Shown here piece after piece: positions 6,098-45,133 of a DNA stretch of 64,000 bases. Made by a program: the position numbers and the translations under genes. The DNA is from a virus (taxonomy: Duplodnaviria > Heunggongvirae > Uroviricota > Caudoviricetes). The notes beneath the pieces are model-generated. The model was not told the origin of the DNA. It saw only the letters and a program-made list of their open reading frames with translations, and did not search any database. The stretch lies in IMG/VR virus record IMGVR_UViG_3300043438_000976, positions 100,027 through 164,026 of that record; one strand, 5' to 3'. Positions within the stretch are counted from its first letter, which is position 1, and each line of letters begins with the position of its first letter.

Positions 6098-6107
6098 AAA
6101 TATCGGA

Positions 6108-16833: not shown

Positions 16834-17225
16834 TTTGTCATCTCCGCTAATTGTTTATATCCATTATATGTAGGATGTACCTTATCTTTCGATAACTCTG
16901 GGATTGTCAAAATAGTATCACCAAAACTGTTAGCAATGATTCTAACAATATCCTGCACCGCTGGTTTAATAGGCGGCATTACCCACATGACTTTTTTTGC
17001 ATAGATTTGTTGCCTCAGTAACAACAATTCTTTAAAAGAGTTTATAGTATCAGGATCATTAGTTCCGAGACTGATAATCACAGTATTGGCAGATAAATCT
17101 TTGACAATATTTCTATTGTTCCAGTTGTAGCTGTTAATACCGCTCTTAACATAAGCAACACATTCTTTACGAACTGTGCTAATGCCTTGAGCAATACTAT
17201 CGCCTAAGATAAGGCATTCTAACAT
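16830..17225 (-). CDS. SGNH/GDSL hydrolase
   Basis: block I LGDSIAQG, block III SLGTND, block V DKVHPT. Confidence 0.55.
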   Translation of the reverse strand: MLECLILGDSIAQGISTVRKECVAYVKSGINSYNWNNRNIVKDLSANTVIISLGTNDPDTINSFKELLLLRQQIYAKKVMWVMPPIKPAVQDIVRIIANSFGDTILTIPELSKDKVHPTYNGYKQLAEMTK

Positions 17226-17764
17226 TATAGAGTCTCGCCACCAACTGTACGGTTACAAGCACATAGCTCGCCTGTTTGTAACGCATCAAGAACACGAAGT
17301 GTTTCTTCTGGGTTGCGACCAACGTTCAAGTTGTTCACAGTTACGTGTTGGATCTCGTTGTTGGGGTCAACAATGAATGTTGCACGAAGTGCGGCACCTG
17401 CAGGTGCATAGAATACGCCCAACTGCTCAATCAAACTCAACTCACCACGCTGTGTGTCTGCGAATTGATTATGACGAATGTTCTTTAGATCAGCGTGAGC
17501 ATTTTGCCAGCTGACTTTACAGAACTCATTGTCTGTTGACCCTGTGAGCAATACTGCGTCACGGTCATCAAAATCTGCGGCTAGTTTGTCGTAGGCTACA
17601 ATTTCTGTAGGACAAACAAATGTAAAGTCTTTTGGATAGTAAACGATTACTTTCCACTTGCCTGGAAATGACTTCTCTGTAATTTCGAAGAATGCATCTT
17701 CTGGTTGTCCAAACTTTACGCCTGTTACTGCGAATGGGGCTAATTTGTCACCGACTGTTTTCAT
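17225..17764 (-). CDS. ahpC: peroxiredoxin (AhpC/Prx1 family)
   Basis: FTFVCPTEI peroxidatic Cys motif; AGGAG SD before ATG 17764. Confidence 0.85.
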   Translation of the reverse strand: MKTVGDKLAPFAVTGVKFGQPEDAFFEITEKSFPGKWKVIVYYPKDFTFVCPTEIVAYDKLAADFDDRDAVLLTGSTDNEFCKVSWQNAHADLKNIRHNQFADTQRGELSLIEQLGVFYAPAGAALRATFIVDPNNEIQHVTVNNLNVGRNPEETLRVLDALQTGELCACNRTVGGETL

Positions 17765-19384: not shown

Positions 19385-21439
19385 TTACTTGCTTGTGGCT
19401 ATGAATACGCCATTCCAGTCGGCTGGAAGTATTTGAGTCTTTTGAAACTCACAGCGTTCTATCCACATGCTGTAGTATTTTTTCATTTGCCCGTCGAACT
19501 CATCTTTCAGTTCTTCACACAGTGTAATGGCATCGTCCCATTTCTGCTGTCTATAACATGAGTGCATTTCATTATGAGTTTCTTGTGCTAACAAATATTC
19601 TGCGGCAACAGTTACGTCAGGGTCAAGTACTGTATAGATAGCAACTCCTACACTCTTACCTTTAACTGCTAGGTCGTCAATCTTAAGGAAGAAGAACTCG
19701 TCAGCACATCGTTGAACGGTTGCTCCACCTACTAATAACAGGCAACCGTATTCTTTACACTTGCTTTCGATACGTGCGGCTGTGCTAACGGCATCGCCTA
19801 GTACATCGTAACTGTGTCGAGCTGTACTGCCCATCTCACCGATGTAGCCCAATCCTGTATTAATGCCTGCACCCATACCAACTGGTGGTCTGCCTTGCGG
19901 AACAATCACGTCTCGGTTAAAAGTATCTACAGCTCTAAGCATCTTTAATCCTGTGCGAACTGCTGTTGACGGGTGATTAAGATCTTCAATGGGTGCATTG
20001 TGTATGTGCATACTGGCATCACCGATGTACTTGATAATCATTCCGTCTGCATCTAATACAGGTTGCGTAATAGCGTCCATGTAGCCGTTCATTATACGTG
20101 TAAGCCCCGCAACATCATCACCAAAGCTTTCACCTAGGGGTGTAAAGCCACGTAAGTCTGAAAACAGTATGCTGACTTCTTTCTTAACACCCTTCTTAAT
20201 AAGGTCTGGATTTTCTTGCAGTAATCTAACCACTGTAGGACTAGCGTAACCTGCAAACTGTTTCTTGATTGCCTGCTTCTGTAAAAACTCGCTTACGAAT
20301 TTAACTCCGTATGCATGTAATGCCACAAGCAATATGCCACTGACAAAAGCAGTAGCATCAAACAGATAAAGATACTGGCTATAAGCATACATGCTGACAG
20401 CAACACCACCCATAGAAAGAGCAACCACTGTTCCAAGTCCAACATATACCCACCTTGTTAAAAATAATAATAGTACGCCTGCTGCTAACAGTACAATAAT
20501 TTCCACACCATCTGCGTAATCCGGACGCTGGATAGTTACATTGTTCATCATTGTGCCTATTACTGCGGCCTGTACTTCGTGTGGAAATACTGCACCCTTA
20601 CTAGTGGGTAATGGATTAGCAATACCTGCGGCTGTTGGGCCTACGATAACAATAGCACCTGCTAGATCTTTTGGCAGGTTTACTGCACTAACGCTGTGAC
20701 TTGCCTGACTCCAATCAATCCATATGCGACCTAAGTTATCTGTTGCTACAGGACCAAACTTAGGTATACGCATCTTCTCAACTCCACCTTCAAATAGCTT
20801 GACTTGGAATGTTGAATCGCCTGCCGCTACGCGGAGTGTTTCCATAGCTAGACTAGGATATAACTTACCGTCAACTGTGACAATTAACGGCAATCTGCGA
20901 TTAACACCATCTACTTCTGGCAGTGTGTTTACGATACCAACACCTGCTGCTGCGTTCTCTAACACAGGTACGTTGGCAATCAAACCCGGATACTGTATAA
21001 TTTGATCCAAGTACTCAGGACCTAATACTGCCGAACCGGGATTGCGTGGTTCGTTCTTTGTTTTCTGTGCAGGAATGCTGCCTAATACAACTGGGTATTC
21101 TTTTAGAGCTTTACCCAGTTGACTGTCACCACCTGTACGATCTGTTTCTGGCATGAGTACGTTAAGTACCACAAGGCCCGCTCCCCTCTGATATAAATCT
21201 CGTATAAGTCGGGAATACTCAACACGAGGTAACGGCCATTGTCCATATTTGTCTAAGCTCCCTTCATCAATGTTTACTGTAACAATGTTGTTAACAGTAG
21301 TTTCTTTAGATGTAATCAGCGTATCAAAATAGCGTAGTCTTATACTTTCTACAAAGACAGGATCAGCAATTCTTATACTTAAAATAAGTGCCAATGTCAG
21401 CAATGCTGTCCATGGACTTGTTAGGATTTTTTTCAACAT
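19385..21439 (-). CDS. CHASE2-sensor class III adenylate/guanylate cyclase
   Basis: N-terminal signal/TM, periplasmic CHASE2-like region, TM cluster, then cyclase block SILFSDLRGFTPLGE...GDAS; 684 aa. Confidence 0.7.
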   Translation of the reverse strand: MLKKILTSPWTALLTLALILSIRIADPVFVESIRLRYFDTLITSKETTVNNIVTVNIDEGSLDKYGQWPLPRVEYSRLIRDLYQRGAGLVVLNVLMPETDRTGGDSQLGKALKEYPVVLGSIPAQKTKNEPRNPGSAVLGPEYLDQIIQYPGLIANVPVLENAAAGVGIVNTLPEVDGVNRRLPLIVTVDGKLYPSLAMETLRVAAGDSTFQVKLFEGGVEKMRIPKFGPVATDNLGRIWIDWSQASHSVSAVNLPKDLAGAIVIVGPTAAGIANPLPTSKGAVFPHEVQAAVIGTMMNNVTIQRPDYADGVEIIVLLAAGVLLLFLTRWVYVGLGTVVALSMGGVAVSMYAYSQYLYLFDATAFVSGILLVALHAYGVKFVSEFLQKQAIKKQFAGYASPTVVRLLQENPDLIKKGVKKEVSILFSDLRGFTPLGESFGDDVAGLTRIMNGYMDAITQPVLDADGMIIKYIGDASMHIHNAPIEDLNHPSTAVRTGLKMLRAVDTFNRDVIVPQGRPPVGMGAGINTGLGYIGEMGSTARHSYDVLGDAVSTAARIESKCKEYGCLLLVGGATVQRCADEFFFLKIDDLAVKGKSVGVAIYTVLDPDVTVAAEYLLAQETHNEMHSCYRQQKWDDAITLCEELKDEFDGQMKKYYSMWIERCEFQKTQILPADWNGVFIATSK

Positions 21440-22080
21440 CCAGTATTTAGTTGGTTAGCAAAGTCTAAAAGCAGACGGTGATGTTGTCCATTGTGATACT
21501 TGCCCGCCATCCATGAGTAGCTATCGTACCAATAGTTTTCACTTTCTGGATGGCAACCTATTACACCGATATTGTTTTGTATAATAGCCATAGCGTCTCC
21601 GTTTGCATATGTGGCAATGGTGTTAAACTTAGCAGAGTTACCTACTAAAGCACAACCATCATACCAAAACATATTCATTGGCTGGTTTTTCCAAGTTATA
21701 CTGATATTTTTAGCGTGTGGTCTGCGTGTATCTGTATTGGGTTGCGTTGAGTATTGAACAGCATCAACGCTGTCCAGTATATCAAAATAGTGTTGGCCGG
21801 CCCAATACGCACCCATGCATATACCTAAATACTTACCACCACCGCTTACAAATGTTTTAACTCTATCTTTAGTATATTTAAATGCACGGTCAAATGTACT
21901 AGCATCACCAAAGCCGCCAGGAATAACTATCATGTCTACATCATCAAAGAAGTTATCTTCTAAGGGATTGATGCTGAATATTTTAAAGTTATAATGTGAC
22001 TGTAATGATCGTATAACTCCATTGCCTGACTGTACGCTACATTTAGGATCATACAAAAACAGGGCAACGGTAGGTTTCAT
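21433..22080 (-). CDS. class I glutamine amidotransferase-like (DJ-1/GATase1 fold) protein
   Basis: IVIPGGFG and nucleophile elbow GICMGAY (G-x-C-x-G). Confidence 0.4.
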   Translation of the reverse strand: MKPTVALFLYDPKCSVQSGNGVIRSLQSHYNFKIFSINPLEDNFFDDVDMIVIPGGFGDASTFDRAFKYTKDRVKTFVSGGGKYLGICMGAYWAGQHYFDILDSVDAVQYSTQPNTDTRRPHAKNISITWKNQPMNMFWYDGCALVGNSAKFNTIATYANGDAMAIIQNNIGVIGCHPESENYWYDSYSWMAGKYHNGQHHRLLLDFANQLNTGC

Positions 22081-22083
22081 AAA

Positions 22084-22368
22084 TTAGCAATTCCATCGGC
22101 GTAGTGCTAATGCTTTTGGTGTAGGTTTTCCGTTAGGCTTTTTCATAGGACCTTTATTGCCACTCATACGGGCACAGAAACTCTTACGGCGTTTAGCATC
22201 CTTGCTACCTGCTTTTAATTTGCTAGGCTTAGTAGTTACTGCTGTCTTTAACTTACTACCCGGATTCTCTCTTCGGTAAGCATTTACTGCCTTTTGGCTT
22301 AGACCATCAGTCTTATCTTTTCTGTTGACTTTATTCCAGTCTTCGTTAATAAATTCGTGTGCTCTCAT
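22084..22368 (-). CDS. small highly basic protein with T4 capsid-targeting-sequence-like N-terminus (MRAHEFINED)
   Basis: K/R-rich 94 aa; N-terminal MRAxEF(I/L) shared with ORF 28532..30220; compare T4 internal-protein CTS MKTYQEFIAE. Confidence 0.3.
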   Translation of the reverse strand: MRAHEFINEDWNKVNRKDKTDGLSQKAVNAYRRENPGSKLKTAVTTKPSKLKAGSKDAKRRKSFCARMSGNKGPMKKPNGKPTPKALALRRWNC

Positions 22369-22375
22369 GATGTAT

Positions 22376-23245
22376 TTATTTTAGTTTATCCGATATGTAT
22401 AGTGCAGCACCCATGCTTGACCCTGCATCGCCTGGATTTTTTGGAACATAGCTGTGTTTAAATGTAGATGAAAGAAGCCTTTTTGCAGGCACATTATAGG
22501 CACATCCGCCTGTAAAAACACAAGAATTACTGTGAAAAGAGGCAAGTTTAAAGCAATTTTTTATCTGTTCCATGAACACACGTTGTACGCTGGCAGCTAC
22601 GTCTGCACGATCTTTTTCTGCTACTTCCCAATCCCAGATTCCTTTATGCAGATTCTTTGTTAGGTAGCCGCAGACTGTTAAGTAGTTTGGTTCCCAATCA
22701 CCAGATGTTGCTAGCATAGTAAGTTTGCTCTCTTCTTGGACAGGTTTAAATCCCAGTAACTCTGTAAATGCTGAGTAGAACAAACCAAGGCTATAAGGAT
22801 AACCTTTTGAAAATACTTTTTTAAATTTTTGATCTTTATAATGCCAGATACTCACAGTATCCCACTCTCCAATTGCATCGGCTACTACGACCGCAGTCTC
22901 AGCTAATCTACTTTCATATACTGCATTGGCTGCATGACTTAAATGATGCGGCACATAATAAATTGGAACAGAAGGTATGTTAAATTTTTTTAGATAGTAA
23001 TGAGGTAGCTGATCAATGCTGACTGCATCTCTGTATTGCCCTGCGTATAGCTGCCGTGACTTTTTCAGCCAAGGCCTTTCGTACCAAGCAATTGCATCTA
23101 CTGCTCCGTATGATAATGCACGATCAACTAGTTCAGGACAAAGGTCAACTCCACACAGGGATCGTTCATGGTGCAATATTTGACCATTGTCCACAACCGC
23201 AATACTAGCATCGTGGTTAAGAGCGTTTATTCCTACTACAGTCAT
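22376..23245 (-). CDS. carbamoyltransferase, NodU/CmcH family (Kae1-like N-terminal domain only)
   Basis: motifs VPHHLSHAANA, ADAIGEWDT, TGGCAYN, NPGDAGSSMGAAL. Confidence 0.55.
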   Translation of the reverse strand: MTVVGINALNHDASIAVVDNGQILHHERSLCGVDLCPELVDRALSYGAVDAIAWYERPWLKKSRQLYAGQYRDAVSIDQLPHYYLKKFNIPSVPIYYVPHHLSHAANAVYESRLAETAVVVADAIGEWDTVSIWHYKDQKFKKVFSKGYPYSLGLFYSAFTELLGFKPVQEESKLTMLATSGDWEPNYLTVCGYLTKNLHKGIWDWEVAEKDRADVAASVQRVFMEQIKNCFKLASFHSNSCVFTGGCAYNVPAKRLLSSTFKHSYVPKNPGDAGSSMGAALYISDKLK

Positions 23246-23354
23246 TTGTAAATGAAAGGGTCTCTTTTACGAAACTCTTTTAATTTTTTACGTATGCGTC
23301 TACGCTCTTGGAACTCACGGAATAGAGATATGATAAAGTTCATATCTCTATTTA

Positions 23355-25100
23355 TTACTGTCTAACTGTGGTGTTACATCCTGATAAAATTGCACAACTC
23401 TGTATTAGAGTAAAACTCTTGCCGCCGCTTTGTTCTAGATCTACAGTTGCGGCCCCGCCGGCATTGGTCACATCAATTCTTGCATTATTAGCCATGGAAC
23501 CAAATTGATTAACATTTACATTGTGCCCGTTGCCCGTCATCTTAACATCGAGATAATGTTGTCCCGTGCCTGTTTGGCTAGTGACTAGCGTATTGTTATT
23601 ACCGCTAACTGTGCTGAATAACAACTGACTGTTGCCCTGTGTGTGATTTGCAGTGTTGTTATTGCCGTTTATCACAGTTTCAGTATAATTAGTACCAATG
23701 GTATTTGTCTGGCTGGATGTCAAGTTATTTTGATAACCATTAACATCTGCTGTTACGTAGTTTGAACCAACTTGTGTGATGCCGATAGTATTAGTTCCAG
23801 CTCCGTCTAAAGTCAACTCAACTCGGTTCTTTGTTCCTGTTACGTTGATAGTTATGTTATTGTTGTCCCCACCTATCTGATCAACATGCACCGAATTACT
23901 ATAAGGTGAAGTACTGTTAACCCAAGTATTGATTCTAGTCTGTTGTGCAGCTCTACTAGAATTATTAACATAAGTACCGCCACTTTGTATAGTTTGATTT
24001 GATGGTGCATTTGTCTGTGTGATTGTTCCGCCTACTACAGTTGGACCGCAGTCAGCACAGACGCTGCCAGCAGTACCCGGATTGTTTGGAGTACTGCCCG
24101 AACCTGTTGCAGTGCTAGTGACTCCGTCATTTAAGTCGTAGTAAAAAGTGATTTCAGCGATCTGCATACTGTCGCAGTTAAGGCCGCATCCGTCTCCTGA
24201 TTTAGTAGTAGGGAATAAAATAAAGTAATAGACATAGGCAGTAGTGTTGCCTGTTTGTATCTCCGGACTGGTCCAAAATCTTTGATCGCTTAAAGACACG
24301 GTATCCTGTTTAATTAATACCCAATTTACGCCGTCATTGCTTCCGTAGAGTTTGTAACTAGTAGGATCGCGTCCTTCAAAGTCGTTAGCAGTAGTTAAGG
24401 TAAATTTTTGTACTACACGACCTTGACTTAATTTAACTGTAACTCCTGCATTCTTTTTATCAAAATTTAAGTATTTTGTACCAGTATTACCGTCGAACGC
24501 ATTGCCTGCACCTTCGCCTGCTGGACTGTTATTACTAGTTGGGTAAATGTTACTAATCACAACAGGCGTGCTGTTAGTCTTGATTGTTTTCCAATCAGTT
24601 GTAGGCGGAGGAGGGGCTGCTGTTTGTCCTGCTGATAACGGAGTTGAACTCGCATAGGTATAATTGTTTAAGTCTGTGCTAGTAACACTAGTATCCATGT
24701 TAGTGAAACTGGCACTAGCACCGTAGTTATAACCCTGAGCAGTAGTAATAACATTGCCAAAGAATCCCGAACCGATATAAAAAATGGCACCATTGCCTAG
24801 TGCTGTAATGTCACCGTGGTCGTGAACAATGCTGTGTTGTGTTCCATTGCTGTTCATTAACTTCAATCCGTGCTTACCTGGATTGGTTGTGCTGTCAAAG
24901 AATTGGAAGTACTGTCCTGAGGTTACGGTTACTGTTTGAAAGTTTTTATTATAAGGTGCAATAAAGTTGCTGGCGTTTAGTGTGTTACCACTCCAGTAAT
25001 ATTGAACATCGAATATTTGATTGATACCAAACTTACCGTCAGTGATAGCACCAAAGGCATTTGAACATAATAACATTAATGCTAATAATATTTTCTTCAT
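23355..25100 (-). CDS. secreted multidomain protein: F5/8 type C (discoidin) domain plus C-terminal curlin-like repeats
   Basis: signal peptide; NAFDGNTGTKYLNF...YKLYGSNDGVNWVLI discoidin signature; C-terminal S/N/Q/G/T repeats resembling CsgA repeats. Confidence 0.45.
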   Translation of the reverse strand: MKKILLALMLLCSNAFGAITDGKFGINQIFDVQYYWSGNTLNASNFIAPYNKNFQTVTVTSGQYFQFFDSTTNPGKHGLKLMNSNGTQHSIVHDHGDITALGNGAIFYIGSGFFGNVITTAQGYNYGASASFTNMDTSVTSTDLNNYTYASSTPLSAGQTAAPPPPTTDWKTIKTNSTPVVISNIYPTSNNSPAGEGAGNAFDGNTGTKYLNFDKKNAGVTVKLSQGRVVQKFTLTTANDFEGRDPTSYKLYGSNDGVNWVLIKQDTVSLSDQRFWTSPEIQTGNTTAYVYYFILFPTTKSGDGCGLNCDSMQIAEITFYYDLNDGVTSTATGSGSTPNNPGTAGSVCADCGPTVVGGTITQTNAPSNQTIQSGGTYVNNSSRAAQQTRINTWVNSTSPYSNSVHVDQIGGDNNNITINVTGTKNRVELTLDGAGTNTIGITQVGSNYVTADVNGYQNNLTSSQTNTIGTNYTETVINGNNNTANHTQGNSQLLFSTVSGNNNTLVTSQTGTGQHYLDVKMTGNGHNVNVNQFGSMANNARIDVTNAGGAATVDLEQSGGKSFTLIQSCAILSGCNTTVRQ

Positions 25101-26212
25101 CTTTGTACTATGGTAATAATAGTATTACCGCCCGAATTTACTCTGTTACTAAATTCAATACTACCTTGTATCTGCGTTATCAAACTGTTCTGTGTCAACG
25201 GTGTTGTTACGCATTGTATATCGCTACCGTTATCTCTACATAACCCAATTTGACCCTCGTCCTTAGTCACAATAATACCGCTTGCTCTTTTCCAGTCTGG
25301 CAATATGCTGTCCGTTTCGTCTTTTAGATAATCTTCATCTAAGCCGCTACCTATTACATCAAATATGTTAGCTAAAAAATTATTATCTAAAAAGTTACGA
25401 GTAAGTCTATCTTCAAAAAATTGTGCATTTTGTTGATCTAATTTGTTTTCAAGTCCTTGCTCTCTCAAGAAGTCAGCATCTAATGCATTATGATTTAGAC
25501 TTGTTTCTCTTTTACCGCCCTGCTTTAGTTCTTGTGGAGGACTTATGATTAACAAATTACTAATAGCATCTTCACTGAGAGTAAGGATAACAGGTTTAGT
25601 AGGCAGTGCAGCCCTGCTAGCTACTTTGGTTGCTTGGAATGCTTGATTAAGAATAACCTGACCAACATCTGTTTCAACTATGATAGTCCCTACAACACAA
25701 TTGGCTTCAATATCTCTATTTGTACGAGTAGGACGATCATTTGGGCAACTTGGTAACAAAATTACAGTACTGCCACCCATTTCATCTACGGTGGCGGTAA
25801 AATCAGTTCCACGAACTGAGATAGTAGCAGTGGGTGTGTTAACTGCAACGTTCTGCGGTGAGTTCTTGGCAATTTGTCCACTGGCGTATCTAACAGTGCC
25901 CAATGCAACTTTAACACCCAGCTTACCGGATTTTGATTTTGAATCGTATACAAAGTCGTCAATGACCAATCTAGAGTTTTCATTAACCTGTACTCGAGTC
26001 TGATCCTCGAACGTTATGCCCACTTTGCCCGCTGCTGTTTTCACAGAGTCGTTCATTTCTACTCCCGTGCCCTTGTTGCCTGTTAGAGTTGAATTCTTTC
26101 TCTGTATGCTGGGAGGTGCGTTCAGCAACTCCGTCACTGTTCCGATGCTGGCTTGACTGTTCAGCGAGGTACTGATCAATAAGCCTAATAAGATTAAGCG
26201 ACATACAGACAT
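25097..26212 (-). CDS. secreted FecR-domain-like protein in the curli-like operon
   Basis: signal peptide; TISVRGTDFTATV block typical of FecR domains. Confidence 0.35.
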   Translation of the reverse strand: MSVCRLILLGLLISTSLNSQASIGTVTELLNAPPSIQRKNSTLTGNKGTGVEMNDSVKTAAGKVGITFEDQTRVQVNENSRLVIDDFVYDSKSKSGKLGVKVALGTVRYASGQIAKNSPQNVAVNTPTATISVRGTDFTATVDEMGGSTVILLPSCPNDRPTRTNRDIEANCVVGTIIVETDVGQVILNQAFQATKVASRAALPTKPVILTLSEDAISNLLIISPPQELKQGGKRETSLNHNALDADFLREQGLENKLDQQNAQFFEDRLTRNFLDNNFLANIFDVIGSGLDEDYLKDETDSILPDWKRASGIIVTKDEGQIGLCRDNGSDIQCVTTPLTQNSLITQIQGSIEFSNRVNSGGNTIITIVQR

Positions 26213-26220
26213 CTCACACC

Positions 26221-27000
26221 TTAATTACCAGTAGTAATGCTGACTGTGTTTCCGCTTCCTGCCACAGCAAGATTAACATTGGTATTGATAGTACCACTTT
26301 GTACAACTGTGGTATTGTTATTAGATCCATTGATATTCAATGTTGCAATGTGTCCGTCGGCACCACCACCACTTTGAGTAATATTCGTTGCGTTACTAGC
26401 ACCTAATATGGTTAAATCTACTGTGCCTTTTGCACCAGTTAAATTTAGTGTAGTGTTATTTGCAGTTCCGCTACTCTTATTGATGTTTACAGTAACTTGA
26501 TCCGCATCAATTGTAGCAACAATTTGATTCAAGTTACCGTCTGTAACAGCATTGAATATGTTATTAGATCCTAGTAAATTAAGGTTAGCAATAGTATAAT
26601 CGCCTGTTTGATCAATAGAAACAGTATTACTATTTGCAGTACCCTGCTCGCTATTGTTCATATTGATAGTACCGATACCGCTATTACCTGTTACTCGATA
26701 TATAACACTAGTATCAACGCCGCCACTAGCTGTGGCAGTTACAACACCCAAGTTTAAAATGTTAGCACTACCAATTTGTTCAACAATCAAAGTTAAATTA
26801 TCACCTTTGATTTTTGACGGAGTAGTGTTGCCTGTGCCCGTGCCTTGTATGCCGCGGACGCGGTTGGTTGCACCATCTTGTAGCATAGTGATAACAGAGT
26901 TGTCACCTGTTTGATCAATATAGATACTATTGTCTGCTGCGAAAACTTGTAAAGCGACTAACATCACAATCGCTGTCATTACTTGATTTAGCTTCTTCAT
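26221..27000 (-). CDS. curlin-repeat (CsgA/CsgB-like) secreted protein
   Basis: signal peptide; repeats of S-x-I-x-IDQTGD-N-S / Q.G..N pattern resembling curlin pseudorepeats. Confidence 0.5.
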   Translation of the reverse strand: MKKLNQVMTAIVMLVALQVFAADNSIYIDQTGDNSVITMLQDGATNRVRGIQGTGTGNTTPSKIKGDNLTLIVEQIGSANILNLGVVTATASGGVDTSVIYRVTGNSGIGTINMNNSEQGTANSNTVSIDQTGDYTIANLNLLGSNNIFNAVTDGNLNQIVATIDADQVTVNINKSSGTANNTTLNLTGAKGTVDLTILGASNATNITQSGGGADGHIATLNINGSNNNTTVVQSGTINTNVNLAVAGSGNTVSITTGN

Positions 27001-27056
27001 GTTTTTATCAGTTCTTTTGAAACTGCTCCTTGGGGTGTTATGTATTGCTCCCCGAC

Positions 27057-27971
27057 TTACTTGGCCCTGACTTCTTTGCTTCCTTCAGCATCTTTTCTGA
27101 CACTGGACTGCGGCGTTGCGGAAGGGCCTTCTGGGGCTCTTTCGCTTTCGGTGTTCTTTTGAACCAACTCATTTTTTGCTCCCTTATAATTCCAAAGCCC
27201 CTTACGAGCTCCTTCTTTGATAAGTTCAACCACTCCGGCTTCGATTGCTGATTTTACAGCATATGTTCCTGGCTCGTTTATTGTTAATCCTGCTTCGCCT
27301 TCAAATGCCCTAGTGCCTAGGTCAAAGAATTTAAGAGCAGTTATTGCATCAGCCGAACTAAGAATTGTTTTTTGCACAGTTACAGATGCTAATACTTTTC
27401 CAGTATTAACACTCACTGCTCTTAGGCTTATGGTTACAATATCCTGACTCCACTGAGTCTGTTTTCCAATACCAAAGACTCTTGCACCAATGCCGCCACT
27501 CTTTGTTGAACTGTCATAACCTACTATACCACCTTCAATAATCATGCCAGCAAACTGCATTGGCATTAATGGCTTTGCAGCCGCTCCTTCATATGCTTCA
27601 CGCATCTGACGAATAATTAATCTTTCTTTGGTCAAGTTATCGATACCTACCCGCTCAACAACATCAAACCATTGTCCTCGACCTACATCTTGCAGTGCTT
27701 TGATCAAGAAGCTTTCTGCACCTTGTGTAACTGCGGAACTTAAACTGGCAATATTGGCCTGCGGCTTTCTCTGACCAGTCATATCTTTAAAACTATACAC
27801 CGCAACACTAACAGGTTTTCCGTGTGCAGGCTCCTGTATAGTATCAAATTCTTTCTGCATCATCACTGCGGTAACTTCGGGCTTGTCCGCCTCTACTAAA
27901 GGATTATTTTGATGTATTGCACACCCTGTTAGAAAACTTGTAAAGACTAGTACTAATAATATTTTTTTCAT
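27057..27971 (-). CDS. csgG: curli production assembly/transport lipoprotein CsgG
   Basis: lipobox LTGCA; near-colinear similarity to E. coli CsgG (VYSFKDMTGQRKP, IIEGGIVGYDSSTKSGGIGARVFGIG, KTILSS). Confidence 0.9.
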   Translation of the reverse strand: MKKILLVLVFTSFLTGCAIHQNNPLVEADKPEVTAVMMQKEFDTIQEPAHGKPVSVAVYSFKDMTGQRKPQANIASLSSAVTQGAESFLIKALQDVGRGQWFDVVERVGIDNLTKERLIIRQMREAYEGAAAKPLMPMQFAGMIIEGGIVGYDSSTKSGGIGARVFGIGKQTQWSQDIVTISLRAVSVNTGKVLASVTVQKTILSSADAITALKFFDLGTRAFEGEAGLTINEPGTYAVKSAIEAGVVELIKEGARKGLWNYKGAKNELVQKNTESERAPEGPSATPQSSVRKDAEGSKEVRAK

Positions 27972-27972
27972 A

Positions 27973-28455
27973 TTATATCCCCGGAACTACAAATTGACTT
28001 AACGGAATATCAATAGTGGTATTGATATCTGGACCTACTACAGTTAGACGAATAAAGTTGCCGTCTACTAATATAACTTTTTGCCAGCTGATTTTGCTGC
28101 CTTGGAAATCAACCTCACCTTTACAATCTGCTGTAGGAGTAGTACTGGTGCATCCGCTATTAGAAAACATAGCAGTTGCTACGTTTTGGCTAACTTGTGC
28201 ATAGATTCTAGACTCTAAGTTGTTTAAAAACTTAGCCAAGTTAGTGTTCTTTTTGTCAGCAGCCTCTTTGTCTAATGCTGCTTGAAGTCTATCTTGTAGA
28301 GCTTTTCTACGAGTCGCTTCTTGATTTTCGATAGTTAAGACGTGACTACTGTAACCTGCTCCGTTGAAGGCCGGACTTTTAAAAGTAAAGTCATTTATTG
28401 GTGCAGCCTGTACCGTCATTGCAGACAAGGCCAGGCCGAGAATTAAAAATCGCAT
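27973..28455 (-). CDS. csgF: curli assembly protein CsgF-like
   Basis: signal peptide then FTFKSPAFNGAGYSSHVL matching the CsgF N-terminus FQFRNPNFGGNPNNGAFLL; translationally coupled to csgG. Confidence 0.65.
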   Translation of the reverse strand: MRFLILGLALSAMTVQAAPINDFTFKSPAFNGAGYSSHVLTIENQEATRRKALQDRLQAALDKEAADKKNTNLAKFLNNLESRIYAQVSQNVATAMFSNSGCTSTTPTADCKGEVDFQGSKISWQKVILVDGNFIRLTVVGPDINTTIDIPLSQFVVPGI

Positions 28456-30226: not shown

Positions 30227-30895
30227 TTATTTACCAATTTCAGGGAACAGCACTTGCTCAACAAACTGTCGGATAGTTGCTTCCGGCACTCCCATAGCAA
30301 TCATGCTGCGATACACATGGGGATTTTGTTTCTGATTTTGACAGTAGTAATTTTGTTGGTCAGTAACATCGACCCCGTTAATGCGATCTCCTACATTGTG
30401 TAGATAGTAATCTAGGGTTTTAATTCCTAGATCTATAATATTATCTAACTCGTGCTGCTCGCTAATATTACCCGCTGCTACCATAGCAGGGCTAAAAATA
30501 TTACGAGCCCACCCGGGTAATTCTCGTTTCTTGTTCCAAGTTACGTCTTTTACAGTATCTGCAAACCAGTCGTGCAACCAATGGCTTTTGCTTACTAGAC
30601 TAAAATCATGAAACGCACCTGTGATCTTGTTCTTGCCGCAGACAGCATCAAAACCCCAGATAGGACTAGGATCGTCTGGGTGTGGGAATACTGTTGCATG
30701 TAGGATGTATATTCCGTGTGTTGTAGTCTTGTCTACTACTTCCACGTGTCCTCTACGAAACAGATTACTATGGTATACATGATTTTCCCAGTCGTATTGA
30801 TCTAAACTAGGATCTTCTGCTCTGTACCCTGCATGTTCCATCATGGCCTGCATAGTTTCAGCACACTGCTGCATCTGTGTCCATACTGTGCTCAT
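30227..30895 (-). CDS. ferredoxin-dependent bilin reductase (PebA/PebB/PcyX-like), paralogue 1
   Basis: HVEVVD...VFPHPDDPSPIWGFDAVCGKNKITGAFHDFS matches the FDBR core. Confidence 0.55.
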   Translation of the reverse strand: MSTVWTQMQQCAETMQAMMEHAGYRAEDPSLDQYDWENHVYHSNLFRRGHVEVVDKTTTHGIYILHATVFPHPDDPSPIWGFDAVCGKNKITGAFHDFSLVSKSHWLHDWFADTVKDVTWNKKRELPGWARNIFSPAMVAAGNISEQHELDNIIDLGIKTLDYYLHNVGDRINGVDVTDQQNYYCQNQKQNPHVYRSMIAMGVPEATIRQFVEQVLFPEIGK

Positions 30896-31608
30896 TGATG
30901 TGTTCCTATCTTAGGAAACAGGCAGTCCTGTATAAACACACGAACGTCTTCTGGATTCAAACCCAATGCAGTCATTACTTTAGGAGTATGGGGATTCTGT
31001 CTTTGATTTTCACAATAGTAATCCTGTGCAGGACCAGTGTCTAATGCAGTTCCGTTTGTCTCGCCTACTGTGTTAATGAAATGCTTTAAGTTATTAATAG
31101 CAGTAAAATACAGTTGTTGAAGCTCAGTTGGATCGTTAACGTTTCCCGCACTGATCATGCTAGGAGTAAAGATACGCTCTGCCCAGTCGGGCAAACGTCT
31201 AACTTTGTTCCACTCTAATTTTTGTGCTTCGTCTGCAAAATAATCTAGCATCGGATGCTCTGGATCACCAGCAGGACTAAAGTCGTGAAACGCACCTGTT
31301 ACTTTGTTTTTGCCAGCTACTACATCAAATCCAAAGATAGGTGCAGGATTATGAGTATGCGGAAACACACAGCAATGCATCATCCATAGGCCCTTGGTTT
31401 CTCTAGCATCTACTACATCGATGTGTGCTCTGCGATATAAGCTACTGGTCCAGACTTTGTTGTACCAACTGAATCTTTCTAAGCCCGGCTCTTGTACTTC
31501 TGTACCACTGAGATTGAATTGTCTTTCAAACTCAGTTTGTATATCAATTAGACTGTTCCAGACCAAGCTCATTGTTATATGACTCCATAATTTTGATAGC
31601 CCATTCAA
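30892..31608 (-). CDS. ferredoxin-dependent bilin reductase, paralogue 2
   Basis: HIDVVD...VFPHTHNPAPIFGFDVVAGKNKVTGAFHDFSP; tandem with paralogue 1. Confidence 0.55.
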   Translation of the reverse strand: MNGLSKLWSHITMSLVWNSLIDIQTEFERQFNLSGTEVQEPGLERFSWYNKVWTSSLYRRAHIDVVDARETKGLWMMHCCVFPHTHNPAPIFGFDVVAGKNKVTGAFHDFSPAGDPEHPMLDYFADEAQKLEWNKVRRLPDWAERIFTPSMISAGNVNDPTELQQLYFTAINNLKHFINTVGETNGTALDTGPAQDYYCENQRQNPHTPKVMTALGLNPEDVRVFIQDCLFPKIGTHQ

Positions 31609-32095
31609 AAGCTACATTGGCTTCGTCGCCCATGCTGTCATCTAACTTAGCACGAATGTTAGTTTTTAATGTGTTAGCATCTTCAAATTCTAAATTGCGA
31701 TGCGGACCCGGAACAATCTTCTTAATCATTTGTCCGCCGAACATATCTCCCATATGCCACACATATAAATGTGCCATAACCTTATTAGGATCTTGACTGA
31801 TGCTTAATATATAGTTGTAATAATCAATAACCAATGGGCGATATGAGTGACGAGGATTTTGCCCGTTCATCTCATTGTAGTCCATGTTTAGATAAAATTC
31901 TCTACGCAGATCGGGCAAGTCGCCTAGTAATCTGTTAGCACCGGCTGCACCTTCGATTGCACCGTAAAATAAGGACTTTTGTAAAGTCCAGTCTGTCCAT
32001 ATTTCTCTGGGTAATGTCTTTGCAAACACTGCCTTCATAAAAGGTGTGTGTTCTGCACGATCGTGATTTTCTGCTGTTAATTCTTTAAGACTCAT
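31544..32095 (-). CDS. heme oxygenase
   Basis: N-terminal LKELTAENHDRAEHTPFMK... proximal-helix region resembles HO-1; 183 aa; immediately upstream of the bilin reductases. Confidence 0.5.
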   Translation of the reverse strand: MSLKELTAENHDRAEHTPFMKAVFAKTLPREIWTDWTLQKSLFYGAIEGAAGANRLLGDLPDLRREFYLNMDYNEMNGQNPRHSYRPLVIDYYNYILSISQDPNKVMAHLYVWHMGDMFGGQMIKKIVPGPHRNLEFEDANTLKTNIRAKLDDSMGDEANVAFEWAIKIMESYNNELGLEQSN

Positions 32096-33322
32096 TTAAT
32101 CCTCGTAACGTTCTAATACTGCACAAGCAGCCCTGCCGCCGAATGCAAAATTGTTCTTTATTGCATACTTAGTTGCAATCACCGTGGCCTTGGTAGGAAT
32201 ATTGATTCCTACATCAATTGGGTTAGTTAAATTTACAGTAGGGGGTGATATTTGATCTCGTAGTGCTAACACAGTGTAGATAGTTTCAACAATTCCGCTT
32301 GCAGCCAACGTGTGTCCAATTTGTCCTTTATTTGCCGTCATTGTTGTGCCTGGCAACAACTCACGCATGGCATAAAATTCAATGTCATCTCCGACTTTAG
32401 TTCCGGTAGCGTGTGCATTAATATATCCGACATCGGCTAACTGTATGCCTGCTTGTTTTATTGCTCTGGTTACTGCTAACTTTGCAGCGTCACCGTTTTT
32501 ATCTGGGGCAGTATCATTATTACCAGCTGTGGCAATTCCCACAGACTTGATTATTCCGTAAATCTTTGCACCCCGTGCTTTGGCTTTATCTAACGGTTCG
32601 ATAATTAGTGTGCCAGCAGCTTCTCCTGCTACAAATCCTGATCTATCTTTGTCAAAAGGTCTACTGGCAATTTCTGCTGGTTGTAAACTTAATGCACCGA
32701 GATTTTGAAAGTAGTATACTTGGAAGCCTTCAATGGGTACGTCGGCACCTCCCACAATGACAGCATCGAGATCGTCATTAAATTCTAGTTGCTTAATAGC
32801 ATAATCAATACCAGTTAGTCCAGTTGAACATGCAGAGTGCATCGAAGTTGAACCACCGTTGCATTCGTATATCCTAGCAATCAATCCGCTAATGTAATCC
32901 GCAGTTGCTTGTATTACCTGCCTTGGTGAAACTCTTTCGCGGCCATCTTCTAGTTGTCGCATCATGTATGCTCTACTATGTAAACTTCCACCAGTGGTAC
33001 TAAACACTACTGAAACATTTTTGCTAGTAAGATTGCTGTCTCTGATAGCATCTCTAGCAGTGTGCATTGATATTTTAACACACGGATCCCAATACTGGTG
33101 ATGCCCTCCAAATTCTGCTTCTTCAAACGCAGGTAACGGACACGGTGCTCCAGAAGAGACAATTAAAGATTTATGTGTTCTTGGAAATTTTGTCGGATTA
33201 TCTTCAGGCCATTTGATCTGTTTAATTGCAGTTTCTCCTGCTAACAGATTTTTCCAGTTTTCTTGAACACTTGCACCTAGCCCATTAATGATTCCTATTC
33301 CAGTAACGGCGTATTGTTTCAT
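32096..33322 (-). CDS. fabF: beta-ketoacyl-ACP synthase II (FabF-like)
   Basis: active-site Cys region HSACSTG, His motifs NAHATGT and GHTLAASG; 408 aa. Confidence 0.85.
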   Translation of the reverse strand: MKQYAVTGIGIINGLGASVQENWKNLLAGETAIKQIKWPEDNPTKFPRTHKSLIVSSGAPCPLPAFEEAEFGGHHQYWDPCVKISMHTARDAIRDSNLTSKNVSVVFSTTGGSLHSRAYMMRQLEDGRERVSPRQVIQATADYISGLIARIYECNGGSTSMHSACSTGLTGIDYAIKQLEFNDDLDAVIVGGADVPIEGFQVYYFQNLGALSLQPAEIASRPFDKDRSGFVAGEAAGTLIIEPLDKAKARGAKIYGIIKSVGIATAGNNDTAPDKNGDAAKLAVTRAIKQAGIQLADVGYINAHATGTKVGDDIEFYAMRELLPGTTMTANKGQIGHTLAASGIVETIYTVLALRDQISPPTVNLTNPIDVGINIPTKATVIATKYAIKNNFAFGGRAACAVLERYED

Positions 33323-33627
33323 TCTTCTTCGATTCTAACAGCTAGTGGCCAACCATTTTGTCTAGCAAGCATTGTGCTTTCTACACCTTTTTGTTCTGCA
33401 ACTTCGTAAGTATAAACACCGGCAACACCTGCACCCTGTTCATGTACTCGCATTGTTATTTCTTTTGCACTAGATTCGTTGTGCTTAAACACATGCATCA
33501 ATAATGCAATGACAAAATCCATTGGGGTGTGATCATCATTTAGTACAATCACTTTGTACATGCCGGGTGTTACAATGTCAAAATCTTCTTCAATATCAAC
33601 AATATCTTTAGTTTTGGTATTTGCCAT
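33319..33627 (-). CDS. clpS: ATP-dependent Clp protease adaptor ClpS
   Basis: MYKVIVLNDDHTPMDFVIALLMHVF matches the ClpS core [20 protein letters not shown]. Confidence 0.85.
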   Translation of the reverse strand: MANTKTKDIVDIEEDFDIVTPGMYKVIVLNDDHTPMDFVIALLMHVFKHNESSAKEITMRVHEQGAGVAGVYTYEVAEQKGVESTMLARQNGWPLAVRIEEE

Positions 33628-33662: not shown

Positions 33663-34094
33663 TTACTTGATGGCAATCAAACGAGGCTTGAGTGCTTCAG
33701 GTACTACTCGTGTAAGTTTAACACGAAGAATGCCGTTTGTCAACTCAGCATCGCCCACTTCTACGTGATCTACAAGCGTAAACGCCCGTTCAAAATCACG
33801 AGCAGCCAGTCCGCGGTGAATGTACTTTTCCGAATCTTCATCTTTAGTACGGTTACCTTTGATGATTAATTGATCCTGGTCAACTGCAACTGTAATATCT
33901 TCTTTGTCAAAACCTGCTACTGCGATTTCGATTTCAAAGTTATTTTCGTCACGTTGAATGACATTATAAGGCGGATAGTTTGTTGTGGAATTTACGTGTC
34001 GGTTTTCGAAATCGTTTGAAATACGATTGAATCCGATAAGTGCTCTATTCAGATGTTGTAGAGCTGTTGTGTCAAAGCGTGAAAGTGCGTTCAT
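33663..34094 (-). CDS. Hsp20/alpha-crystallin small heat-shock protein
   Basis: YPPYNVIQRDENNFEIEIAVAGF...IKG similar to IbpA; start set at MNALSRF. Confidence 0.8.
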   Translation of the reverse strand: MNALSRFDTTALQHLNRALIGFNRISNDFENRHVNSTTNYPPYNVIQRDENNFEIEIAVAGFDKEDITVAVDQDQLIIKGNRTKDEDSEKYIHRGLAARDFERAFTLVDHVEVGDAELTNGILRVKLTRVVPEALKPRLIAIK

Positions 34095-34175
34095 TGTTTT
34101 TCTCCTTAATAAGCAAGAACATTGTGGGGAACTATTCCCCATTTGTAGAACCCTAACGGCGTCCTACAAATTTAT

Positions 34176-42887: not shown

Positions 42888-44327
42888 TTATTTGCGAGCG
42901 TTAGCTCGAACTTCCTCAAAGGTGTAATCTTTGTGCAGGTTGCCGTTCCAGTAAACTGGAACCAGTGCGTTGGTCCACCCGCCGATTCCCCGATCAGTCC
43001 AACCAGTAGGTTCAGTTACCCCTGATGCAAACTCGCCACCACTGTTAGTCCACAGTGTAACACGGCCTGCCTTAGACTTCTTGCCAGGATCAGTGACTGG
43101 GTCTTTGATCACATCAAACCATTCAGTTTTAAAACCAGATCCGAGATCACCATCTTCAACTCTAACAGTACGGCTCATTGCAGAGCACTTCATTGCAAAT
43201 TGTTGAGTATCACGATCTACAATCTGTAACAGAGCACCGCCCATACCAAAAGCAATGTTATCGGCACTCCAGCCCATGGCCATGAACGCACCGAGGATAC
43301 TGCGAACAGTAAGTTCGTTAATACCGTCACCTTGGATCAGTCTGACGTTGTTCAGGACTTTGAAGCCTTTGCTGTTAGTAGTGTATCCGAACTTGGATCC
43401 AAGGATCTCAACTAGCTTACGGTTGACTTCAACAGGATCGCCGCTATCAGGGCGAATGACAACAGTAGCACCACTATCGATAACTTGTTGGCGAAGTTCT
43501 TCGCCCCAGAGCTTAGAGGCTGCGTTGTAGATATCGTAACTATCACTAACAACAGCGAGGATAGTACCGGGACGAGCGAACTGAGTAAGCATATTTCTGT
43601 AAGCATCTACTTCACCGTCGCGACCCCAAGAAGTGATTGTGCTATGTTCGGCAGCAGGAATAGAAAACCCAGCAATGCCAGCTCCATAATACTCACGAGC
43701 GTAAAGAATACCAGTAATGGTATCCGTTCCCATAAAGTTAACGAGGTGAGCCGCAGAACCGATCCCAGCACTTTCGAGGCTAGATACACCGCGAGCACCA
43801 AAGTCGTGCAGTTTAAAATCAATAGTAGTAGGGTCACCTGTACGCTCCAAGTAGTCAAGAATGACTTGTTTAATTTTCCAGCTTTGTGTTGCCACAGTAG
43901 TACCGTACCACACTGCACGAAGCAGAGCAGTTTCCAACCAAGTGGTCAACCAATAACATTTTGGATCGGTATTCTCAATGGTAGCGAGTACGTTTTTGAC
44001 AGGGACAATAGTTCCTTCAGGGACTGCTCGGATAACAACGGGCAAGAATCCTTGGTGCTGGTCAAGAATATACTGCCATCCTTCTCTGTTAAAGGGTTCA
44101 CCGTGTAGGGTAAGAATTTCTTCAGCAATGTCAATATCTGCTTGTGTGATGGGTGCAAGTAGGTATTCCTTGATAAAAGCCTGTAGTCCGAAGAATACAG
44201 TTCTATCGTAACGCCCACCGCGTGATTCAATATATGAATATACACCTGTGGTTCCTGCTGGGTATTGTTTGAACATCGAGACTTTGTACGAGTCTGTGTT
44301 CAGGATAAGATTTTTTGCGAGTTTCAT
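42888..44327 (-). CDS. nadV: nicotinamide phosphoribosyltransferase NadV
   Basis: N-terminal ILNTDSYKVSMFKQYP hallmark of NAMPT; 479 aa. Confidence 0.85.
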   Translation of the reverse strand: MKLAKNLILNTDSYKVSMFKQYPAGTTGVYSYIESRGGRYDRTVFFGLQAFIKEYLLAPITQADIDIAEEILTLHGEPFNREGWQYILDQHQGFLPVVIRAVPEGTIVPVKNVLATIENTDPKCYWLTTWLETALLRAVWYGTTVATQSWKIKQVILDYLERTGDPTTIDFKLHDFGARGVSSLESAGIGSAAHLVNFMGTDTITGILYAREYYGAGIAGFSIPAAEHSTITSWGRDGEVDAYRNMLTQFARPGTILAVVSDSYDIYNAASKLWGEELRQQVIDSGATVVIRPDSGDPVEVNRKLVEILGSKFGYTTNSKGFKVLNNVRLIQGDGINELTVRSILGAFMAMGWSADNIAFGMGGALLQIVDRDTQQFAMKCSAMSRTVRVEDGDLGSGFKTEWFDVIKDPVTDPGKKSKAGRVTLWTNSGGEFASGVTEPTGWTDRGIGGWTNALVPVYWNGNLHKDYTFEEVRANARK

Positions 44328-44405
44328 TGTAAAGTTCCTTTACTTGTTATGCCAGGCGTCTATCGCTTGGACTTGTTTATAGTATAACACAGACCTATTT
44401 CTGCG

Positions 44406-44879
44406 TCAACTAATTCTTTGGCTAAATTCAACGAGTGTAACCTGACCACTTCGTTTAGCAATCTGGGCGGCAAACCGTTCGATCATATCCAAAATAGTTT
44501 CCTGGTCGCCACCGGCAAGTCCGCATCCAATGTAAGGCAATCCAATACGTTTGTTACCGTACATAAATGTTAATTTCTCAAGTATCAATTGAAATGCAGT
44601 GTACTCAAACACATCAGTACCTTGACTCATATTGTACTGAGTGTAGGCATTGATGATAATAAAAGTACCTTGGTCAAATTCTGTCCAGTTACCTAGTTTC
44701 ATATGATCGCCTTTGGCAGTTAGATTATCGATCTCTGCACACATTGGAAATCGTTCACGGATCTCTCGGGCAATGCCGCCGCCCATTGTGTTAAAGCAAT
44801 TACAGCCTTGTACCACAACATCGAACTCACCTGCTTCTGCTAGGTCGAGTAGATTACCTTTAGTATGTTTTAATGTCAT
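44406..44879 (-). CDS. macro-domain (ADP-ribose binding/processing) protein
   Basis: VVVQGCNCFNTMGGGIAREI resembles the macro-domain NAAN..GGGGV motif. Confidence 0.45.
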   Translation of the reverse strand: MTLKHTKGNLLDLAEAGEFDVVVQGCNCFNTMGGGIAREIRERFPMCAEIDNLTAKGDHMKLGNWTEFDQGTFIIINAYTQYNMSQGTDVFEYTAFQLILEKLTFMYGNKRIGLPYIGCGLAGGDQETILDMIERFAAQIAKRSGQVTLVEFSQRIS

Positions 44880-45133
44880 TCTTCAACTCCGAAATGTGAT
44901 TCTAATCTGCTGACAATGTCCGGAGCCACAACATCAGCATCCCATTCATTCTTAAAAATTATGGATGGATGGTCCTTACATTTTTTAATACATTCTCTCA
45001 CAATCAGTTCAGCGAACTTTTCCATCTTAAAAGCTAATACAACTGCATCAGGATCAAACATAAAGCCCACTCCAGCCTGTTCAGCAAGTTCTCTAATTCG
45101 TTCGTTCATAGTTTCTCTCCACAATGCGGACAC
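44876..45133 (-). CDS. small hypothetical protein, paralogue of 45339..45617 (both end HFGVEE)
   Basis: shared MNERIRELAEQ...VRECIKKC/VRECANVA...HFGVEE. Confidence 0.3.
   Translation of the reverse strand: MSALWRETMNERIRELAEQAGVGFMFDPDAVVLAFKMEKFAELIVRECIKKCKDHPSIIFKNEWDADVVAPDIVSRLESHFGVEE

Follow-up and report, generated by a model that had tools for sequence, protein, structure and literature searches.

Two diverged bilin reductases in tandem beside heme oxygenase in a freshwater phage genome that also encodes 5-aminolevulinate synthase

The DNA examined here is a stretch of 64,000 nucleotides, hereafter the window, of the virus record IMGVR_UViG_3300043438_000976 (Caudoviricetes; positions 100,027 to 164,026 of that record). 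It carries a heme oxygenase gene (hemO) followed by two tandem genes for ferredoxin-dependent bilin reductases (FDBRs), designated FDBR-1 and FDBR-2, and, on the other strand, a gene for 5-aminolevulinate synthase (ALAS), which is called valaS when viral. The two reductases differ at active-site positions that separate PcyX from PcyA: FDBR-1 has the aspartate of PcyX (Asp-type) and FDBR-2 the glutamate of PcyA (Glu-type). The positions of these genes and of the other features of the window are listed in Table 1.

Table 1. Features of the window, with the bilin and 5-aminolevulinate genes first (aa, amino acids).
Feature	Position	Strand	Remarks
hemO, heme oxygenase, 183 aa	31544-32095	-	Pfam PF01126 61.3 bits, cut-off 23
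FDBR-1, Asp-type (PcyX-type) bilin reductase, 226 aa	30892-31572	-	PF05996 56.4 bits, cut-off 31
FDBR-2, Glu-type bilin reductase, 222 aa	30227-30895	-	PF05996 50.4 bits, cut-off 31
valaS, 5-aminolevulinate synthase (glycine + succinyl-CoA to 5-aminolevulinate), 397 aa	51810-53003	+	TIGR01821 532.9 bits, cut-off 338.55
DUF454/YbaN-like small membrane protein	53000-53419	+	PF04304 99.5 bits; 4-nt overlap with valaS stop
FabF-like beta-ketoacyl-ACP synthase	32096-33322	-	Pfam ketoacyl-synt + C-terminal domain
clpS	33319-33627	-	Pfam ClpS 94.8 bits
hsp20	33663-34142	-	Pfam HSP20 69.6 bits
Protein without Pfam family, 562 aa	28532-30220	-	Pro/Ala-rich C-terminus; follows FDBR-2
CsgF, CsgG lipoprotein, FecR-domain, F5/8-type-C, carbamoyltransferase-like and GATase-like proteins, CHASE2-adenylate/guanylate cyclase	19385-28455	-	
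AhpC/TSA peroxiredoxin close to CMD/AhpD-like protein	16327-17764	-	
NAD salvage pair: nicotinamide phosphoribosyltransferase + NMNAT-Nudix fusion	42888-46539	-	
tRNA island, 34 tRNA genes	275-8351	-	First 8.4 kb of the window; nearly all amino acids covered

The identities of hemO, FDBR-1, FDBR-2 and ALAS are almost certainly correct. They had been proposed in a preliminary description of this DNA and were borne out together with their coordinates, apart from the start codon of FDBR-1, which was corrected. Its longest open reading frame (ORF; 30892-31608) begins with TTG, and the ATG at 31572 gives the 226-residue protein that is also called in the relatives. In the heme oxygenase, the proximal histidine (His20 of HmuO) is matched in the alignment by His11, and the distal motif GDMFGGQ is present; the Pfam match spans only the first 129 of the 183 residues, beyond which the sequence is divergent. 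The enzyme is predicted to convert heme into biliverdin IX-alpha, iron, and CO. An FDBR gene follows hemO immediately in almost all of approximately 100 related loci. In the window, the frames of hemO and FDBR-1 overlap by 29 nt and those of FDBR-1 and FDBR-2 by 4 nt; upstream, the clpS and ketoacyl synthase frames overlap by 4 nt, and the ketoacyl synthase gene abuts hemO. To judge from this layout, the genes are likely to form a single transcription unit with translational coupling. Scans for consensus promoters and terminators around the hemO and ALAS loci gave matches at or near the chance level and were not used.

The ALAS protein scored above the cut-off of its family model, and its scores on the models of the sister families were all below theirs (bioF 304.6 bits, cut-off 426; kbl 297.6 bits, cut-off 460; serine palmitoyltransferase likewise), so that a grouping with KBL or AONS, raised beforehand as the alternative, did not apply. 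The best matches in the Protein Data Bank (PDB) were ALAS enzymes (7x98, E=1.2e-124; 2bwn, E=2.8e-123), and Lys250 aligns with the pyridoxal phosphate (PLP)-binding lysine K248 of the Rhodobacter capsulatus enzyme, as an ALAS assignment had led one to expect. The ligands of heme feedback are missing: a lysine occupies the position of R. capsulatus His342, and with its 397 residues the protein stops short of Cys400. The best bacterial relatives are only 50-56% identical. A search of cultured phages gave KBL/BioF-like matches of at most 35% identity and no true ALAS in that collection, many of these matches lying in unannotated records or in records named for bacteria. Twenty-six related viral ALAS loci were found (including the range L089-L114). 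The window thus covers the three functions that had been ascribed to this gene set, namely the synthesis of 5-aminolevulinate (ALA), the opening of heme, and the reduction of bilins.

FDBR-1 and FDBR-2 are 42% identical over their full length. For both, the best structure match was PcyX (PDB 5owg), with E=3.6e-65 for FDBR-1 (full length, 223 bits) and E=1.9e-44 for FDBR-2, which confirmed the resemblance to PcyX-type phage genes pointed out in the preliminary description. The alignment with the catalytic residues of FDBRs, on which that description had made the assignment depend, held for both proteins, the His and the Asp being conserved in each. PcyX numbering was obtained with an offset of 8 residues between the 5OWG chain and the native protein, derived from the aligned D55, M67, H69, and D86. 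On this scale, residues D52, M64, H66, and D83 of FDBR-1 correspond to Asp55, Met67, His69, and Asp86 of PcyX, whereas the PcyX signature is lacking in FDBR-2, whose E52, I64, H66, and D83 correspond to Glu76, Ile86, His88, and Asp105 of Synechocystis PcyA. FDBR-2 therefore carries the complete catalytic triad of PcyA (Glu76/His88/Asp105), while FDBR-1 has Asp at the Glu76 position. In the literature, Glu76 is required to reduce the 18-vinyl group, the reaction which defines PcyA, and PcyX, with Asp in its place, forms phycoerythrobilin (PEB). FDBR-2 could also be aligned with PcyA 2d1e (E=2.7e-12), with the E, I, H, and D in register. Its AlphaFold model (pLDDT 94.3) showed the alpha/beta/alpha sandwich fold of FDBRs, and the best PDB matches of this model were PcyA (TM 0.82) and PcyX (TM 0.72/0.88), followed by PebB, PebA, HY2, and PebS.

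These residues were found to be highly conserved within each type. The combination D-M-H-D occurs in all 83 other first or single FDBRs of the IMG/VR loci, and E-I-H-D in the four FDBR-2 orthologues of these loci, that of the window counted. Among the best 120 FDBR-2 homologues from metagenomes, which range from 98% down to 51% identity, 117 have E-I-H-D. Glu together with Ile or Val is present at these positions in every proven PcyA of the reference set, including those of phage CB_2 and Bradyrhizobium (the set was taken from the supplementary FASTA of Wegner et al.). Between the Asp-type and Glu-type clades, ten alignment positions are fixed differently (at least 85% within each clade). At three of the ten (55, 67, and 68), which lie on active-site strands, the Glu-type enzymes match the PcyAs through the changes Asp to Glu, Met to Ile, and Met to Leu. 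Some freshwater phage FDBRs encoded near valaS carry other active-site variants, namely Ser/Leu/His/Asp, Cys/Leu/His/Asp, Val/Met/His/Asp, and Gln/Ile/His/Asp (L108, L113, and GROS21-1_SAMEA9560540, _9560823, and _9560542 of the Wegner supplement). The Ser/Leu, Cys/Leu, and Gln/Ile variants nest inside the Glu-type clade and the Val/Met variant in the Asp-type clade.

Two trees were constructed by neighbour-joining, one of 149 columns with PebA, PebB, and PebS as outgroups and the other of 222 full-length columns rooted with cyanobacterial PcyA. The first recovered the AX clade in 81 of 100 bootstrap replicates, the pair of CB_2 and Bradyrhizobium PcyAs in 89, and a phage clade holding all Asp-type and Glu-type enzymes in 86. 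Both reductases of the window are hence located on the PcyA/PcyX branch and are not PebA/PebB-like partners; their placement in the phage clade fits the likeness to PcyX noted in the preliminary description. In the second tree, the phage clade was recovered in every replicate and the Glu-type clade in 88 of 100, or 63 of 100 after removal of the ten discriminating columns; the Asp-type group was not monophyletic (17/100). FDBR-1 falls within a freshwater Asp-type clade (72/100). The phage clade that contains both FDBRs excludes the CB_2 and Bradyrhizobium PcyAs in 86-100 of 100 replicates, and the cyanobacterial PcyAs too. The Glu-type enzymes accordingly have the appearance of a lineage derived within the phage PcyX radiation, in which the PcyA-type glutamate may have been kept throughout or gained a second time.

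The order hemO, Asp-type, Glu-type is not confined to the window. It recurs in L002/L003, L004, L087/L088, L195, L196, L197, and L199, making at least seven diverged lineages, with orthologue identities of 57-99% for FDBR-1 and 64-98% for FDBR-2. The surroundings of these tandems vary, as the ketoacyl synthase gene and an upstream hsp70 are present in some and absent from others. The Asp-type is the only FDBR adjoining hemO in L005-L081, and the Glu-type is the only one in L082-L086, L092-L095, L111, L200, and L201; since the IMG/VR scans were seeded with the pattern itself, these counts of tandem and single loci are not estimates of frequency. In the Glu-type singleton loci L082-L086, the place of FDBR-1 is taken by an ORF of approximately 190 residues (L082, ~9430-10004). 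It was considered as a decayed FDBR-1 and rejected, because it encodes an alpha/beta hydrolase with the motif CHSLGG and without FDBR similarity. An unrelated gene in this place indicates that insertions are tolerated between hemO and the FDBR. The starting point was probably a pair of hemO and a Glu-type gene, which the Asp-type gene joined or from which it disappeared repeatedly. For pairs of sequences without synonymous saturation, the ratio of nonsynonymous to synonymous substitution rates (dN/dS) was approximately 0.05 for FDBR-1, 0.06-0.07 for FDBR-2, and 0.05-0.08 for hemO. Both FDBR genes are thus under strong purifying selection at the level of hemO. Such long-term retention of both genes disfavours redundancy, and it is fairly likely that the two reductases do not duplicate each other's function.

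The source of the window is a large freshwater phage of about 190 kb or more. Its phage nature is evident from genes for rIIA, rIIB, and nicotinamide phosphoribosyltransferase and from the 34 tRNA genes; the coding fraction is 86%, in short, co-oriented genes. A viral contig of 192.8 kb (IMGVR_UViG_3300027710_001079) carries the same hemO-FDBR-FDBR block, and a copy of this block at 98-99% identity was detected in KRAE22-1, a lake metagenome assembly of the European Nucleotide Archive (ENA). Further relatives were found in the assemblies GROS21-1, MEHR18-2, MUNK22-1, BUCK21-1, and ASPL16-1. The GROS21-1 series comes from lakes of north-east Germany (Wegner et al. 2024, PMC11480375), and the naming of KRAE22-1, MEHR18-2, MUNK22-1, BUCK21-1, and ASPL16-1 suggests samples of the same kind. 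The GC content of the window is 40.5%, close to that of the German-lake phage contigs of Wegner et al. (40.7-41.7%), while their marine contigs have 30-38%. The lake relatives and this GC match identify a freshwater phage, and the marine likeness drawn in the preliminary description is hence disfavoured.

The host is plausibly non-cyanobacterial, since the cultured phages with the closest single genes infect SAR11 and OM43 Methylophilales. The closest cultured FDBR relative is in Pelagibacter phage Mosig (48% identity), and those of the CHASE2-cyclase are in Methylophilales phage Melnitz (51%) and Pelagibacter phage HTVC008M (36%). None of the cultured phages was close enough for transfer of annotation; a DNA-level search with the stretch from hemO through the FDBRs and the ketoacyl synthase gave a single match of 159 bp, again in Mosig. 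Scans of family libraries turned up no photosynthesis genes among approximately 70 ORFs of the window, and a diderm host is indicated by the CsgG lipoprotein and CsgF that the phage encodes. This host is probably a heterotroph. Thus, the non-cyanobacterial host proposed earlier remains plausible, but its further narrowing to alphaproteobacteria on the strength of ALAS is not supported. ALAS is no marker of such a host because a gammaproteobacterial host has been predicted for one valaS phage (cited in Wegner et al. 2024, PMC11480375) and the bacterial ALAS enzymes are too distant, as noted above.

These observations can be combined into the following model, in which we infer what each reductase makes, what donates the electrons, which host is infected, and how the infected cell uses the bilins. 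Freed of heme feedback, the phage ALAS would raise the supply of ALA, which host enzymes would turn into heme; the window has no genes for the seven intervening steps, which must be the host's. The phage heme oxygenase would open this heme to biliverdin and release the iron, and the two translationally coupled reductases would then reduce biliverdin using a host ferredoxin, as no ferredoxin gene was detected in the window by Pfam models or Cys motifs. The expected product of the PcyX-type FDBR-1 would be PEB. FDBR-2 is predicted to have PcyA-like regiospecificity because it has the glutamate on which 18-vinyl reduction by PcyA depends, and it would give a second bilin, most likely phycocyanobilin (PCB). 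We consider it rather probable that the window holds auxiliary metabolic genes for tetrapyrroles that form a set of the valaS "broken cassette" kind, with two non-redundant reductases that make different bilins. The specific assignment of PCB to FDBR-2 is more tentative and falls somewhat short of an even chance. "Broken cassette" is a suitable description because the distance from valaS to hemO varies among relatives from approximately 2 kb to that of the window, with spacings of 2-8 kb in L004, L085, L092-L095, L108, L111, and L113.

Several points weigh against this model and nourish other explanations of the tandem. Both reductases might form the same product, PEB, their residue differences being neutral or kinetic and the tandem serving dosage or providing isoenzymes for different conditions or ferredoxins. 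Both indeed belong to the phage PcyX radiation, apart from the proven PcyAs, and this leaves FDBR-2 outside the PcyA group in the neighbour-joining trees; these trees have 149-222 columns and give the backbone of the phage clade weak support. The position of PcyA Asp220 is Pro in FDBR-2, as in PcyX, and also in FDBR-1, while the proven PcyAs are acidic there, those of cyanobacteria with Asp and those of Bradyrhizobium and CB_2 with Glu. FDBR-2 reached only 74.7 bits on NF002760, the NCBIfam equivalog model for PcyA (cut-off 206), compared with 87.1 bits for FDBR-1. The exchange of Asp for Glu is conservative and could be neutral. Moreover, a few residues are a poor guide to regiospecificity, as subtle changes in FDBRs have given surprising products (the 2026 pre-PcyA paper), and the activity of the Glu-type clade is predicted from sequence. 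A common product is nevertheless unlikely when the two proteins have diverged so far, when three of their ten clade-fixed differences lie on active-site strands and match PcyA in the Glu-type, and when the residue at the Glu76 position is the one that separates PcyA from PcyX chemistry in the literature. A dN/dS of approximately 0.05-0.07 across lineages diverged to 57-65% identity is also unexpected for redundant phage copies. Sequential action, in which the pair would have been subfunctionalised from a four-electron enzyme and would work like PebA and PebB, is suggested by the adjacency, the coupling, and the 4-nt overlap, as in pebA-pebB pairs, and by the repeated switching of FDBRs between two- and four-electron chemistry (2026 pre-PcyA paper). 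An obligate relay of this kind is disfavoured because each type is widely the sole FDBR beside hemO, so that neither depends on the other, and both keep the full His/Asp pair and the third acidic residue. We regard it as quite improbable.

A further explanation concerns the purpose of the genes rather than their enzymology. Heme oxygenase may free iron in an iron-poor lake, with the reductases clearing biliverdin, so that it would be of no consequence which bilin they form, and ALAS separately serving respiration or cofactors; Wegner et al. discussed benefits in iron and respiratory heme. In line with it, ALAS is 19.7 kb from hemO in the window, and for most of the hemO-FDBR loci retrieved an ALAS gene is missing within 10 kb, so that the coupling of ALAS to the bilin genes in our model is based on co-occurrence only. 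A bilin-binding protein (phytochrome or globin-type binder) or a lyase was not seen in the window either, which also speaks against pigment use. This economy of iron and heme leaves unexplained why two diverged reductases with different active sites are so strongly constrained. We judge it to be on the unlikely side as the purpose of the gene set, and it would be compatible with the proposed enzymology. That two diverged reductases have been retained across long evolutionary distances is an argument that the phage has a stake in which bilin is made, beyond the release of iron or the removal of biliverdin. This bears on why phages of heterotrophs carry heme oxygenase and bilin reductases at all, which the field calls enigmatic.

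A bolder version of our model is that phages, starting from a PcyX ancestor, re-invented the chemistry of PcyA in the Glu-type enzymes and that two bilins, PEB and PCB, are made in infected non-photosynthetic freshwater bacteria. We put this forward as a speculation and regard it as rather unlikely. If true, it would imply a bilin-dependent process in the infected heterotroph, such as a photoreceptor, regulator, or carrier, and a natural switch (Asp/Glu, Met/Ile, and Met/Leu) that sets FDBR regiospecificity. The uncharacterised Glu-type clade is large (117 clusters within the best 120 matches alone), and its difference from PcyX includes the residue held responsible for PCB versus PEB formation. 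The tandem thereby offers enzymologists a natural experiment on regiospecificity, and it calls into question two current views, of Glu76 as exclusive to PcyA and of the phage AX-clade enzymes as PEB synthases. We expect moderate interest among researchers of bilin reductases and of phage auxiliary metabolism.

The gene downstream of valaS encodes a DUF454/YbaN-like protein (Table 1) and is translationally coupled to valaS. DUF454 adjoins ALAS in 19 of the 26 viral ALAS loci, including loci that are 58% identical and have the inverted order, and in none of 80 bacterial ALAS loci inspected with 4-kb flanks. It is hence a conserved phage partner of valaS. This phage-specific pair is a lead on how the ALA supply is handled. 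A radical SAM gene on the other side of ALAS (50740-51768) was examined as a HemN/BchE candidate and rejected, since it gave generic radical SAM matches far below all cut-offs; it adjoins ALAS only in the closest relatives.

Around hemO, clpS and hsp20 adjoin the gene upstream in 64 of 80 IMG/VR loci (L002-L081). The series hsp20-clpS-hemO-FDBR appears as a conserved block, which is preceded by hsp70 in some lineages. The ketoacyl synthase reached 281 bits on fabF models, under their cut-offs, and lies between clpS and hemO in some members of the tandem lineage only (L002, L003, L087, L195, L197, and L199); it is outside the bilin pathway and was treated as context. The 562-residue protein encoded after FDBR-2 was rejected as a conserved bilin partner, because unrelated genes occupy its place in other relatives. 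In L087, its counterpart is 56% identical, while hemO and both FDBRs are 98-99% identical to those of the window, indicating that this gene is hypervariable or recombining. The synteny of the block that runs from CsgF to the CHASE2-cyclase is kept in relatives, one of which has a weak curlin-repeat protein nearby. In the tRNA island, one tRNA-Ile(UAU) call is unusually long (92 nt), and another was obtained without a determined anticodon. The peroxiredoxin and the CMD/AhpD-like protein form a possible antioxidant pair, which could matter if surplus ALA led to porphyrin photosensitisation, an effect reported for over-expression of valaS (Wegner et al. 2024, PMC11480375).

Among known enzymes, FDBR-1 is closest to PcyX (PDB 5OWG), which according to work of Ledermann et al. 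in 2016 and 2018 is reportedly a phage PEB synthase. Both are products of genes that follow a phage hemO, and they share the four active-site residues Asp55/Met67/His69/Asp86 over a full-length alignment. FDBR-1 differs in coming from a freshwater lineage of predicted activity, and FDBR-2 departs from PcyX by the changes of Asp to Glu, Met to Ile, and Met to Leu, the residues that separate PcyX from PcyA. With the PcyAs of CB_2, Bradyrhizobium ORS278, and cyanobacteria, FDBR-2 has in common the Glu/His/Asp triad, an Ile at the Ile86 position, and the fold (TM 0.8 to 2D1E). It differs from them in falling outside their clade and below the NCBIfam cut-off, and in having Pro in place of the acidic residue at Asp220.

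The combination of hemO, a pcyX-like gene, and valaS in a phage is already published, and a PcyX-type set with an added ALAS, which the preliminary description had pointed out, is therefore not a novelty. The preprint of Chen et al. 2020 was the first to report ho1, pcyX-like, and ALAS genes in large freshwater phages, and Wegner et al. 2024 (Nat Commun, PMC11480375) found valaS in marine and freshwater phages as part of a three-gene cassette, as a "broken cassette", or alone. They showed that a freshwater viral AlaS complements an ALA auxotroph, that the heme-feedback ligands His342 and Cys400 are missing from many viral AlaS, and that phage CB_2 encodes, as its FDBR, a genuine PcyA producing PCB; the role of hemO with FDBR was termed "enigmatic", with supply of iron and respiratory heme discussed as benefits. 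As in the window, their cassette unites the three functions in one phage genome, in which hemO stands beside an FDBR and valaS apart, and their viral AlaS carries its PLP lysine at residue 250 without the ligands of heme feedback; the GC content of the freshwater members is approximately 41%. In contrast to the two reductases of the window, their table gives a single bilin reductase per contig, and the text contains no duplication or tandem. The proteins of the window are absent from their sequence files, which hold a lone Glu-type sequence (GROS21-1_SAMEA9560623) that was not singled out, and the article makes no mention of a valaS-DUF454 pairing. In the literature searched, we found no description of a tandem of Asp-type and Glu-type enzymes or of a second reductase bearing PcyA residues. 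The tandem and the size of the uncharacterised Glu-type clade were not found in the published work and are what the present analysis adds to it.

The nearest parallel to the tandem is located in cyanophage P-RSM6 (L198, NC_020855.1 73504-74836), in which a pebS-type gene (CPXG_00107) overlaps with a pcyA-type gene (CPXG_00106). Both genes are annotated merely as "ferredoxin oxidoreductase". As in the window, an enzyme of the PEB-synthase type is encoded upstream and one of the PcyA type downstream, in overlapping frames. The P-RSM6 enzymes belong to different FDBR families, PebS and cyanobacterial-type PcyA, and serve a phage whose cyanobacterial host has phycobiliproteins, whereas both reductases of the window come from the phage PcyX radiation and their host is probably a heterotroph.

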